The position numbers and the translations under genes are program-made. From the IMG/VR virus record IMGVR_UViG_3300027917_000107: a stretch of DNA of 34,550 nt; one strand, 5' to 3'. The DNA comes from a virus. The notes under the pieces were generated by a model. That model did no database searches and was not told the DNA's origin. It saw only the letters and a list, made by a program, of their open reading frames with translations. Shown piece by piece: positions 31,871 through 34,003 of the stretch (its first letter is position 1; every line of letters begins with the position of its first letter).

Positions 31871-31928
31871 CCGCACACGCACGCAGTGCACCCGGCTGGC
31901 GACGGCGACAAGTGCGGGTTTCGACGTG
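31871..31928. repeat. 58-bp direct repeat, copy 1 (ccgcacacgcacgcagtgcacccggctggcgacggcgacaagtgcgggtttcgacgtg)
   Basis: 56/58 identical to copy 2 at 33770-33827. It lies immediately downstream of the 31855 stop. Confidence 0.85.
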
Positions 31929-32078
31929 GCCGAGATCCGGCGGCGCCTGCCGCGCAACAGGCGCCGCGCGCTCGACATCCCCACCGCCCGCCGGTACCTC
32001 GACAGCATCGAGGTGCCTGCCGGCACAACTATGGGCGAGGCGGTCTCGCTCGCACTCATGGAGGACGCAACCCAATGA
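31926..32078 (+). CDS. possible small protein (50 aa)
   Basis: GTG lies at the end of repeat copy 1. Coding status is uncertain. Confidence 0.3.
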   Translation: MAEIRRRLPRNRRRALDIPTARRYLDSIEVPAGTTMGEAVSLALMEDATQ

Positions 32079-32341
32079 CCCCCACCACCTGGACGCCGTG
32101 CAGCGACTCGATCGAGACGGGCCCGTGGAACGACGGCAGCGTTGCCACGTTCACGCCCGTGAGCAACGGGTATCACGTCGGCTACCGCTGCGAAGTCAAC
32201 GGCGAGGTGAGCTACGTCACGCTCAACCCGAGCACGGGCGGGGACTCGCCCGACGTGTTCGTGTACGAGGGCGGCACCGGCGACCCGATCGAGGACAACC
32301 CGGTCTGCTATGTGGGGTTTCCGCCCCTGGAGAAGGGCTGA
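32075..32341 (+). CDS. hypothetical protein (88 aa)
   Basis: ATGA overlap. Confidence 0.55.
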   Translation: MTPTTWTPCSDSIETGPWNDGSVATFTPVSNGYHVGYRCEVNGEVSYVTLNPSTGGDSPDVFVYEGGTGDPIEDNPVCYVGFPPLEKG

Positions 32342-32342
32342 C

Positions 32343-32834
32343 ATGGAAGGGAGAACCTACACCATGCGAACCATCACCTACGCAATCCACATGCACGACG
32401 GCTACGTCGTCAGCCAAGTCGGCGACGAGCTGGCGTGGCCGGTCCTCGACTTCGACGCCATCGGCAAGGGCGGGCGCAACAAGTGCGTCGACCTGGGCGA
32501 GGAGGGCGAGAAGCTCTATGCCAAGGGCGACTTCCACGGACCGACGCGCTTCGACCTGGATAAGCTGCCGGTGCTCGAATGCCGCGAGTACCGGCATCTC
32601 GTCTGGACCCGCAAGGTCCCGCTCACCGTCAAGAACTACCACCGTGCGTTTTGGGGCATGAAGTCGCTCAAGCGCGAGACCGTCGTGCCCTGCGAGAAGT
32701 GCTCCGTGCGCCTGCCGATCACAGAGATGAGAGCGCGCCGCATCCGCAGCAACCCGTACGTGTGGAGCCGGGTGCAGCACCGCTGCCCCGACTGCGCGCC
32801 CGACTGTGCGCCCAGGGTCATGACCCTGGCATGA
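32343..32834 (+). CDS. hypothetical Cys-containing protein (163 aa)
   Basis: ATG lies 1 nt after the upstream TGA. ATG 32366 is an alternative start. Confidence 0.55.
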   Translation: MEGRTYTMRTITYAIHMHDGYVVSQVGDELAWPVLDFDAIGKGGRNKCVDLGEEGEKLYAKGDFHGPTRFDLDKLPVLECREYRHLVWTRKVPLTVKNYHRAFWGMKSLKRETVVPCEKCSVRLPITEMRARRIRSNPYVWSRVQHRCPDCAPDCAPRVMTLA

Positions 32835-32840
32835 CGACGT

Positions 32841-33761
32841 ATGAACCGGCGTCGTACCTACACCCCAGTCCACTTCACCCTACGTGCTCAGAAGGGCACC
32901 ATGAGCTACGAACTGGAGAGCTACACTCACCCCGACGACCCGAGCATCCGGGTCCGCATCATCCAGGACACCGACCCGTTCGACCCCGAAGAGGGCGACA
33001 CGCCGGTCTACCTCGTGCACTACCACCGGAACTTCCACCACCACCCCGAGCGCTACGACGGCACATACAGGTGTAAGGTCTCCGCCGTGCCGTTCGACGA
33101 GAGCACGGGCGCGTTCATCGACTGGATGCAGGCGCACTTCGATGGTGCTCCTGTGCGCGCGGACTACGAAGACGAGGGCGAAGTCGATGAGGACGAGTGG
33201 GCCGAGGCCGTCTCCGACTGGCACGCCGAGCACGACGACTGGGCCGTGTTTCTCGTCGACTCGTACATCCACAGCGGCGTGCACCTGACGCTGACCGGCA
33301 GCGTCGAGGCCGCCCGCCTGCCCGACCGGCAGTGGGACGTGAGCCAGTGCGGCGCCGTGCTCATCAAGAAGGACGGCGGCTGGGGGCACGCCTGGGAGGA
33401 GGACGACGAGTGCCCACTGTGTGAGTTCGGTACGGTCGAGGTAGTGGACGGCGAAGTCCGCTGCCGTGGAGAGTGCGGTGCTACGTGGAGCAACACGAGC
33501 GACGAAGGTTACCGCTACGTGCGTGACGGCGAACTCCACGAGACCACGTGGGAGCAGGTCGCCCAGCAGCACATCGAGGCGTGGAACCAGTACCTCAGCG
33601 GCGACGTGTGGGGCTACATCATCGAGCGTGCGGAGGAGTGCTCGTCCTGCGGGCATGTCGAGTACGAGCAGCTCGACTCCTGCTGGGGCTTCTACGGCGC
33701 CGACTACGTGTGCAAGGTGGCCCGGCGCGCTGCCGACGGATTCGTGCAGGAGCAGTCGTGA
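32841..33761 (+). CDS. hypothetical acidic, Cys/His-rich protein (306 aa)
   Basis: Long ORF. ATG 32901 is an alternative start. Confidence 0.6.
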   Translation: MNRRRTYTPVHFTLRAQKGTMSYELESYTHPDDPSIRVRIIQDTDPFDPEEGDTPVYLVHYHRNFHHHPERYDGTYRCKVSAVPFDESTGAFIDWMQAHFDGAPVRADYEDEGEVDEDEWAEAVSDWHAEHDDWAVFLVDSYIHSGVHLTLTGSVEAARLPDRQWDVSQCGAVLIKKDGGWGHAWEEDDECPLCEFGTVEVVDGEVRCRGECGATWSNTSDEGYRYVRDGELHETTWEQVAQQHIEAWNQYLSGDVWGYIIERAEECSSCGHVEYEQLDSCWGFYGADYVCKVARRAADGFVQEQS

Positions 33762-34003
33762 AGCCGCAGCCGCACACGCACGCAGTCCATCCGGCTGGCG
33801 ACGGCGACAAGTGCGGGTTTCGACGTGCGCCTGTCCGGCAAGGAAGCAGGCAGCACGTCGTCGCCGGCGCCGTGAACGAGACGACCCTCATGTTCTCCGC
33901 CCTGCCTCCGCCAGCACCGCCCTTCCTCGGCGTCTGGCTTCTCATCCTCGTCGACAACATCATGCATCTCACCATCAACTTCTTCACACTGGAGTACCTA
34001 TGA
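33758..34003 (+). CDS. possible small membrane protein (81 aa) reading through repeat copy 2
   Basis: GTGA overlap. The C-terminus is the hydrophobic stretch FLGVWLLILVDNIMHL. Coding status is uncertain. Confidence 0.3.
   Translation: MKPQPHTHAVHPAGDGDKCGFRRAPVRQGSRQHVVAGAVNETTLMFSALPPPAPPFLGVWLLILVDNIMHLTINFFTLEYL
33770..33827. repeat. 58-bp direct repeat, copy 2
   Basis: It lies immediately downstream of the 33761 stop. Confidence 0.85.

Follow-up and report, generated by a model that had tools for sequence, protein, structure and literature searches.

Joints in mosaic phage genomes are generally thought to arise by illegitimate recombination near gene boundaries (summarised in PMC3029335). 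Among the Cluster I mycobacteriophages, the ends of genes 67 and 68 of Island3 carry a ~50-bp nucleotide repeat that flanks a gene absent from Brujita, which the authors read as recombination between the ~50-bp sequences (Pope et al. 2011, PMC3029335). In T4-type phages, genes that lie between PeSL cassettes are deleted, inserted or circularised when the cassettes recombine (Arbiol et al. 2010, PMC2839356), and the SAS elements of Cluster K mycobacteriophages are 13-bp sequences with a Shine-Dalgarno-like core that lie 3-7 bp from the start codon, occur in 11-19 copies per genome and are conserved across subclusters (Pope et al. 2011, PMC3203893). Here we evaluated a 59-nt direct repeat pair in an uncultured phage, IMG/VR record IMGVR_UViG_3300027917_000107 (34,550 nt; hereafter "the window", meaning the whole stretch of DNA analysed), whose two copies bracket a block of four genes and which we lean towards interpreting as the footprint of a past recombination event.

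By analogy with these systems, the locus behaves like a mosaic-junction direct repeat, which is a known kind of feature. As in Island3 and Brujita, two direct copies of ~50-60 bp sit at gene termini around accessory orphan genes, one copy lies within a real open reading frame (ORF), and the pair can be read as product or substrate of recombination between short homologous sequences. Island3 differs in that its repeat lies at gene 3' ends and the indel is proven by the sister genome Brujita, whereas here the repeat lies at a gene 5' end, four genes are involved and a single genome is available. The PeSL cassettes share with our locus that repeats span from the upstream stop to the downstream start and flank non-essential ORFan genes in plastic regions; the likeness is confined to position and to the likely recombinational consequence. 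A PeSL has a sigma-70 promoter, a stem-loop that acts as terminator and a Shine-Dalgarno site, and is present many times over; we found none of these features for the 59-mer. Like the 59-mer, SAS and extended SAS (ESAS) elements are asymmetric, keep one orientation and lie beside start codons of non-structural genes in an actinophage-like genome. The 59-mer differs from them in being present as two 59-nt copies that lack a Shine-Dalgarno-like core and are conserved nowhere else, and we rejected SAS/ESAS identity on its length, its copy number and the weak duplex (-3.4 kcal/mol) at its terminal GTG.

Two copies of a 59-nt repeat bracket four genes

The repeat consists of two direct copies (31870-31928 and 33769-33827) that agree at 57 of 59 positions, with mismatches at 31888 (G/C) and 31891 (C/T) in the numbering of copy 1. 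A preliminary description made from the sequence alone had given a 58-bp pair with 56 of 58 matching bases, which is real and near-perfect but one base too short on the left. As that description had it, each copy begins within about 15 nt of a gene stop: copy 1 starts 14 nt past the TGA (31853-31855) of the 320-codon gene g320, and copy 2 starts 7 nt past the TGA (33759-33761) of the 286-codon gene g286. A GGCGAC GGCGAC doublet and a terminal TTTCGACGTG are likewise present in both copies. The suggestion that the GTG at the end of the repeat can start a small ORF holds for copy 1, where this ORF runs for 50 codons, whereas in copy 2 it runs for only 16. The copies are spaced 1,899 nt apart, which is 3 x 633, and both therefore lie in the same codon phase. 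The principal elements are as follows.

31870 to 31928, + strand: repeat copy 1, which fills the spacer from the g320 stop to ORF50 and whose last three bases are the GTG of ORF50
31926 to 32078, + strand: ORF50, a putative gene of 50 codons (VAEIRRRLPRNRRRALDIPTARRYLDSIEVPAGTTMGEAVSLALMEDATQ) that was left uncalled and is the first gene of the bracketed block
33758 to 34003, + strand: ORF81, a small membrane-type ORF of 81 codons, present in the source gene call
33769 to 33827, + strand: repeat copy 2, which makes up codons 5-23 (PHTHAVHPAGDGDKCGFRR) of ORF81
33914 to 34003, + strand: 3' remnant of a DUF3307 gene, the last ~30 codons, where guanine-cytosine (GC) content is back at the genome baseline

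What had been described as a bracketed gene trio is thus a block of four genes (ORF50, g88, g163 and g286), the first of which had been overlooked.

We evaluated copy number across the window together with its extension in a second contig (L002), which yields a 40.7-kb contig. Sub-patterns of 35 nt and 18 nt from the repeat, allowing up to 3 mismatches, matched at the two copies only (shuffled sequences would give 0.00 and 0.06 matches, respectively), and a local-alignment scan of both strands of the whole 40.7-kb contig revealed no third or partial copy, its best score being 27 against a shuffle maximum of 26. Local alignment also showed that the intergenic gaps at 29507-29662, 30755-30892, 32835-32900 and 38219-38327 lack even a partial copy. 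The BLAST-type count proposed in the preliminary description thus comes to two copies in the 40.7-kb contig and none in the public collections searched: a 20-mer of the repeat was not found in JGI metagenomes or GTDB genomes, neither a 32-mer, a degenerate coding pattern nor the 5' half was found in IMG/VR, and the phages of INPHARED gave chance matches only (E >= 0.7).

The edges of the repeat are sharp on both sides, with only a gapped ~10/13 match following it. The downstream flanks of the two copies align no better than shuffles (local-alignment score 32 versus a shuffle mean of 32 +/- 5), and the higher score of the upstream flanks (59 versus 31 +/- 5) reflects only the acidic codons that they have in common. 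A longer ancient duplication taking in g320 and g286 was rejected, as a BLASTP comparison of g320 with g286 was not significant and the upstream DNA score is accounted for by those acidic codons. Identity of 97% over 59 nt between unrelated flanks points to a duplication event rather than a conserved motif; by comparison, the repeated regulatory modules of the distant relatives L006 and L008 are just 60-90% alike and number 10-28 copies. The encoded 19-residue peptide PHTHAVHPAGDGDKCGFRR has no homologue among 1.84 billion protein representatives, so the conserved protein-coding motif that had been named beforehand as the observation that would overturn the repeat as described is not what we found.

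As a separate observation, the repeat contains GGGTTTC (31916-31922 and 33815-33821), which has the X XXY YYZ form of a slippery heptamer in frame 0 and places UUU plus a rare CGA in frame 2; the same heptamer also occurs at 1121, 9810 and 32315, and its presence in the repeat may be due to chance.

Copy 2 lies in the 5' coding end of a chimeric ORF

Translation of copy 2 as the N-terminal part of ORF81 (KPQPHTHAVHPAGDGDK) is very probable. The GTG start at 33758 has AGGAG 5 nt upstream and a predicted anti-Shine-Dalgarno duplex of -6.6 kcal/mol, which falls within the range of all 27 called genes (-5.0 to -12.5 kcal/mol), whereas the alternative start, ATG 33890, has no Shine-Dalgarno site (-3.0 kcal/mol). 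ORF81 also overlaps both of its neighbors by 4 nt, through GTGA with the stop of g286 and through ATGA with the start of the following gene, g76. Between copy 2 and the DUF3307 remnant, frame 2 is coding-like, with a log-likelihood of +7.6 over 28 codons and a GC content by codon position of 0.76/0.52/0.86, and further on it scores +24.0.

The remainder of ORF81 has a different affinity. Its last ~30 residues (APPFLGVWLLILVDNIMHLTINF...) correspond to the C-terminal helix of DUF3307/phrog_6676 proteins, including the conserved PPFLxVWLLIxxDNxxHLxIN pattern, and positions 100-131 of the 131-position phrog_6676 profile match ORF81 residues 50-81. At the nucleotide level, 33914-33982 (69 nt) shares 81% identity with the 3' end of a DUF3307 gene from a bacterium, which adjoins groEL (contig L005). 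A phmmer search of ORF81 against the same 1.84 billion representatives gave 16 matches, all within residues 22-81; 15 of these cover residues 40-81, and the one that extends from residue 22 (P0126) does so at 37% identity. ORF81 has no Pfam match even at E = 10, while its homologue P0002 matches PF11750 at residues 2-67; the N-terminal two thirds of DUF3307 were not found in any frame of the contig, and tblastn of ORF81 against phages gave no match. By sequence comparison, ORF81 is demonstrably a chimera, in which an orphan N-terminus (residues 1 to ~49) from a GC-rich island is fused in frame to a resident DUF3307 remnant, with the joint at ~33905-33913 where GC content drops. The likeness to the family is thus confined to the C-terminal helix, and the family's N-terminal two thirds (the PF11750 region) are replaced in ORF81 by orphan sequence that includes copy 2. 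Because ORF81 is a chimera, the locus has already undergone illegitimate joining.

Among the homologues, seven proteins (P0124, P0125, P0126, P0128, P0129, P0133 and P0136) carry the DUF3307 C-terminal helix either alone (35-84 residues) or on an unrelated N-terminus (P0133), some of these proteins possibly being fragments at contig ends. The 3' ends of DUF3307 genes may have been kept repeatedly after truncation, perhaps because they carry the ribosome-binding site of the next gene, as for g76 here.

Copy 1 precedes a gene missed by the gene caller

The gene call is empty over the 219 nt (31856-32074) in which copy 1 is found. Here frame 0 is strongly coding over 31929-32074 (log-likelihood +24.3 over 48 codons; the other frames score -25.6 and -18.0), with a GC content by codon position of 0.72/0.54/0.88, and on these codon statistics 31926-32078 is a gene that the caller missed, ORF50. 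Its stop overlaps the start of g88 (ATGA). AlphaFold2 predicts two helices (pLDDT 75), and we found no family in Pfam or PHROG, no fold match in the PDB and no tblastn match in phages. Pairing before its GTG start, the terminal GTG of the repeat, amounts to -3.4 kcal/mol and is weaker than at all 27 called genes. By contrast, a TTG at 31868, two bases before copy 1 and in frame 2, has a GAGG site with a duplex of -6.3 kcal/mol, which is within the range of real genes. From this TTG, copy 1 encodes in frame 2 the same peptide as in ORF81, and right after 31928 frame 2 becomes non-coding (log-likelihood -18.0), with a GC content by codon position of 0.90/0.71/0.55.

A recombination footprint is the favored interpretation

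Taking these observations together, we consider it somewhat probable that the 59-mer is a recombination footprint in which copy 1 duplicates the 5' end of the ORF81 gene, a stub that an unequal or illegitimate recombination event left behind when it joined ORF50-g88-g163-g286. Copy 2 would then be the authentic 5' coding end of X, a small gene that is now ORF81 and is translationally coupled to g286 upstream and to g76 downstream, and copy 1 would be the ~20-codon stub, in frame 2, of a second and slightly diverged X allele that once followed g320 and that keeps TTG 31868 and its GAGG site. One parent would have carried g320-X and the other ORF50-g88-g163-g286-X, such that g320 - X stub - ORF50 - g88 - g163 - g286 - X, the order seen here, would result from a single unequal or illegitimate exchange between these two related genomes, with the novel joint at 31928/31929, on the start codon of ORF50. 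The same order could be reached by an alternative route, namely tandem duplication of the 1.9-kb block followed by loss of most of the second copy. A separate joint at ~33905-33913 would have replaced the 3' portion of X together with the 5'-terminal two thirds of the resident DUF3307 gene, giving the chimeric ORF81. We infer this order and mechanism of events, as well as the lack of any function of its own for copy 1, from the present anatomy of the locus.

That anatomy shows the marks of a mosaic junction: two direct copies around a gene-sized unit, abrupt edges with unrelated flanks, and a position at gene boundaries with a novel joint nearby. The GC-rich island of orphan genes that holds both copies, distinct in composition, also speaks for this interpretation. 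The left boundary of homology falls, in each copy, at the start of an ORF whose Shine-Dalgarno site is gene-grade (TTG 31868 and GTG 33758), and both copies would begin just after a stop codon because the left homology edge marks where the upstream genes of the two parents differ. Both mismatches fall at third codon positions and are synonymous in frame 2 (GTG/GTC, valine; CAC/CAT, histidine) and in no other forward frame. Synonymous-only divergence is what the scar model would lead one to expect, because both alleles would have been coding before the event. Enumerating all substitution pairs, the probability of two synonymous mismatches is 0.056 for frame 2, and we regard the pattern as no more than suggestive.

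Several points weigh against the recombination footprint. The argument from synonymous mismatches concerns two sites, and its probability rises to 0.22 when any of the forward frames may count. Inside the repeat, codon statistics are neutral, scoring +0.8 and 0.0 in frame 2 and -1.9 and -0.5 in frame 0. The repeat ends in the frame-2 codons TTT CGA CGT, which are rare (5.6%, 7.6% and 6.7% of synonyms, respectively) and odd for coding sequence, and a repeat that stops precisely at a start codon would suit a leader or initiation region as well. For the first ~46 residues of ORF81 no homologue turned up in any search, which makes X a putative gene. Lastly, the lineage is known from three near-identical assemblies only, and we found no relative with a single copy or without the block, such that the history proposed here is drawn from one genome.

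Whatever their origin, the two 59-bp direct repeats now enclose the four-gene block, and homologous or single-strand-annealing recombination between them could delete the block or duplicate and amplify it, a consequence that would follow from the arrangement. The earlier suggestion that the copies are recombination sites around the bracketed genes is the one closest to the evidence, as a footprint and substrate of general or illegitimate recombination and not as dedicated sites; no recombinase family matched any bracketed or flanking gene.

Alternative explanations for the repeat

The alternative that survives best, though we rate it unlikely, is that the 59-mer is a local cis-regulatory operator or leader (e.g., tandem GGCGAC bound by a phage regulator) that would place ORF50 and the ORF81-g76 chain under common control. 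In its favor, the copies begin 7-14 nt past a stop codon and end on GTG, and both carry the tandem hexamers; the hexamer motif GGCGACGGCGAC is over-represented in the window (4 matches with at most 1 mismatch versus 0.87 expected), though 2 of these 4 matches are the repeat copies themselves. In distant relatives with the g286 family, promoter/operator modules recur in the intergenic spaces and end at start codons, and ORF50 is Arg-rich and predicted to be helical, which could suit it to binding nucleic acid. The regulatory signals that such an element might carry were not found. A scan of 29000-34550 revealed zero sigma-70-like promoter sites. Actinobacterial housekeeping promoters need a TANNNT -10 element, and because the 59-mer contains no TA dinucleotide (count 0) such an element is impossible within it; we rejected a promoter on these two results. 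Folding of the repeat on both strands, which the preliminary description had proposed as a check, gave z-scores of -0.61 to +1.50, no better than shuffled sequences and without a stable structure, no terminator-like site lies at either copy, and no Rfam hit reaches the gathering threshold in the window, and so a structured RNA or terminator was rejected as well. Further against an operator or leader, the anti-Shine-Dalgarno pairing before the terminal GTG is weaker than at any called gene, and copy 2 does not preserve the GTGCAC palindrome of copy 1. The full-length near-identity and abrupt edges are unlike a motif kept by selection, and ORF50 matches no DNA-binding family or fold. A multi-copy regulatory motif was rejected, since neither the four other intergenic gaps nor the rest of the contig holds a partial copy. 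With two copies, none in the other gaps and weak pairing at the GTG, the earlier operator or promoter proposal thus finds no support.

It is quite improbable that both copies are translated, with the 19-residue PHTHAVHPAGDGDKCGFRR forming a common N-terminal module of ORF81 and of a 157-residue protein that would start at TTG 31868 and run into g88 to end at 32341. Frame 2 is indeed open over 31868-32341 and in frame with g88, the TTG has its Shine-Dalgarno site, and the mismatches are synonymous in this frame. Over 31929-32074, however, frame 2 has its negative score and an inverted GC content by codon position, and frame 0 is clearly the evolved coding frame; moreover, g88 is called by the gene caller from ATG 32075, which has its own GGAGGA site, and the shared peptide has no homologue.

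We find it very improbable that the copies are dedicated recombination sites or belong to a small mobile element, whether as att-like or cassette-boundary sites or as termini of a mobile unit that moves the four-gene block. In favor of this, direct repeats enclose a compact group of accessory genes, and all lie within a compositional island. Among the ten genes of 26658-34230, which include the bracketed and flanking ones, no recombinase family (integrase, transposase, homing endonuclease or other) was found in Pfam or PHROG, no inverted-repeat pairs bound either copy or the block, no further copies exist in the genome or in any collection searched, and the repeat overlaps a coding start. A host-derived or mobile repeat was rejected because IMG/VR, JGI metagenomes, GTDB genomes and INPHARED hold no copy, and the small mobile repeat considered in the preliminary description is left without support on the same grounds: two copies, no inverted termini and none in these four collections.

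Two further proposals invoke a shift of reading frame inside the repeat. It is highly improbable that the 59-mer is a portable expression leader, and not a scar, with a frame-2 leader ORF that has a Shine-Dalgarno site of its own and closes on the rare-codon run UUU-CGA-CGU, where stalled ribosomes would make a +1 slip. The slip would translate ORF50 in copy 1 and in copy 2 would set the ratio of ORF81 to a 39-residue product, identical leaders letting the four-gene block excise or duplicate. A programmed +1 frameshift leader starting at TTG 31868 in frame 2, stalling at the rare CGA and slipping from UUU to UUC into frame 0 and ORF50, is likewise highly improbable: UUU_C followed by rare CGA is present, codon preference turns within the repeat, precisely at TTT|C GAC GTG, from frame 2 to frame 0, with frame 0 coding from there in copy 1, TTT, CGA and CGT are rare codons and TTG 31868 has the Shine-Dalgarno site that the ORF50 GTG lacks, but this concerns a handful of codons, no stimulatory element is evident, the shift in copy 2 yields a 16-codon tail only, and translation of ORF50 may simply begin at the GTG.

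Assembly support and lineage

Returning to the recombination footprint, we evaluated whether the repeat could be an artefact of assembly, and rejected this because the pair is seen in both the JGI window and an ENA MEGAHIT contig and a break point in a Logan contig also fits. The ENA contig (ERZ27279932 k141_7297266; 40,155 bp) differs from the window by 6 single-nucleotide polymorphisms (SNPs) over 13.6 kb, with 0 in the repeat. The Logan k=31 contig L003 (SRR6207736) ends at 31921, which is repeat position 52, the very point at which the de Bruijn graph must branch if a second copy differs at repeat position 22. Of the 6 SNPs between the JGI and ENA assemblies, 4 cluster at 32742-32761 within g163 and change IRSNPYVW to VRSNPDAW, which looks like a micro-conversion or a local patch of variation between two assemblies that are otherwise 99.96% identical; the ENA strain also carries R7C in ORF50.

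Beyond these assemblies, close relatives were not found. INPHARED phages gave no nucleotide match to the window, and no gene tried had a relative above 46% amino-acid identity in INPHARED, IMG/VR, JGI metagenomes, GTDB genomes or a set of 5.8 billion proteins. Searches anchored on a ThyX-like protein, g320, g363 and a deoxynucleoside monophosphate (dNMP) kinase found nothing close, and look-ups of identical proteins for g88, g76 and ORF81 returned the source contig only.

Genome context of the repeat

All genes of the window lie on the + strand, and the window has neither tRNAs nor Rfam families. Its products include a DNA methyltransferase, topoisomerase-like and PAPS-reductase-like proteins and an 800-residue protein whose C-terminus is ThyX-like, and directly past its end lie a dNMP kinase, a NUDIX protein and GyrB. 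To summarize its biology, the region is a nucleotide-metabolism or early region of an uncultured high-GC phage. The features surrounding the repeat pair are listed below.

29507 to 33905 (edges approximate), no strand assigned: GC-rich island with a GC content of 0.65-0.76 versus ~0.61 across the contig, holding both repeat copies
30893 to 31855, + strand: g320, a called gene upstream of copy 1, with an identical protein on Logan contig L003
32075 to 32341, + strand: g88, a called and bracketed orphan gene with no Pfam or PHROG match
32343 to 32834, + strand: g163, a called and bracketed orphan gene with CxxC...CxxC motifs, whose 156-residue version has no family match
32901 to 33761, + strand: g286, the last bracketed gene, which matches phrog_6186 (E = 8e-10), a widespread phage family of unknown function

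The island is probably foreign or recently recombined DNA, and on its right side it ends where the DUF3307 remnant starts (GC drop at ~33900). None of its genes g363, g320, ORF50, g88, g163 and g286 belongs to a Pfam family, and g286 alone has a PHROG match. Homologues of g363 share 30-50% identity and are scattered over assorted contigs of metagenome-assembled genomes without synteny. For g286 we found 137 homologues, the best at 46% identity, and four contigs that carry one (L006-L009; at most 46% identity) have no synteny with the window.

Two of these contigs represent distant AT-rich relatives, L008:1-16768 (JGI 3300024259 Ga0233437_1003385) and L006:1-8001 (Logan SRR26275510_167000), whose g286 homologues are 39-46% identical and which have 160-180-nt spacers between nearly all of their small genes. 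In L008 the module repeated in each spacer combines an operator-like palindrome, CAATTGATAAcCGATTATCAATTG (28 copies), with a second half-site, a -10-like box GGTATACT and CATCGAAAGGA followed by ATG, and the L006 spacers hold an analogous module of other sequence. The modules are 60-90% alike and repeated in 10-28 copies in L006 and L008, and judging from this sequence layout the spacers appear to form a PeSL-like, per-gene promoter/operator architecture.

Other features of the window were seen in passing. In g320, in-frame 21-nt tandem repeats at 31412-31463 give a low-complexity stretch AEKAEREAEKAEKEA. The 800-residue protein (26658-29060, + strand) matches ThyX (PF02511) only at residues 639-777; its long N-terminal extension is rich in cysteine and of unknown function, an unusual trait for a phage thymidylate synthase. 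At 648-803, a degenerate run of GCC/GCCGCC-type repeats with 75% GC contains eight overlapping members of a 51-nt family.

Implications for phage accessory regions

A recombination footprint of this kind is an ordinary feature of mosaic phage genomes, one that opens no new mechanism and has no bearing on a long-standing question. For annotation of the genome, ORF50 is to be added and ORF81 flagged as a chimera with a DUF3307 3' remnant. The 1.9-kb block is expected to vary between strains. If the interpretation as a recombination footprint is true, the locus would represent a clean single-genome example of how phage accessory regions are assembled, with joints at gene starts, one of which leaves a duplicated gene stub and another a fused remnant ORF.

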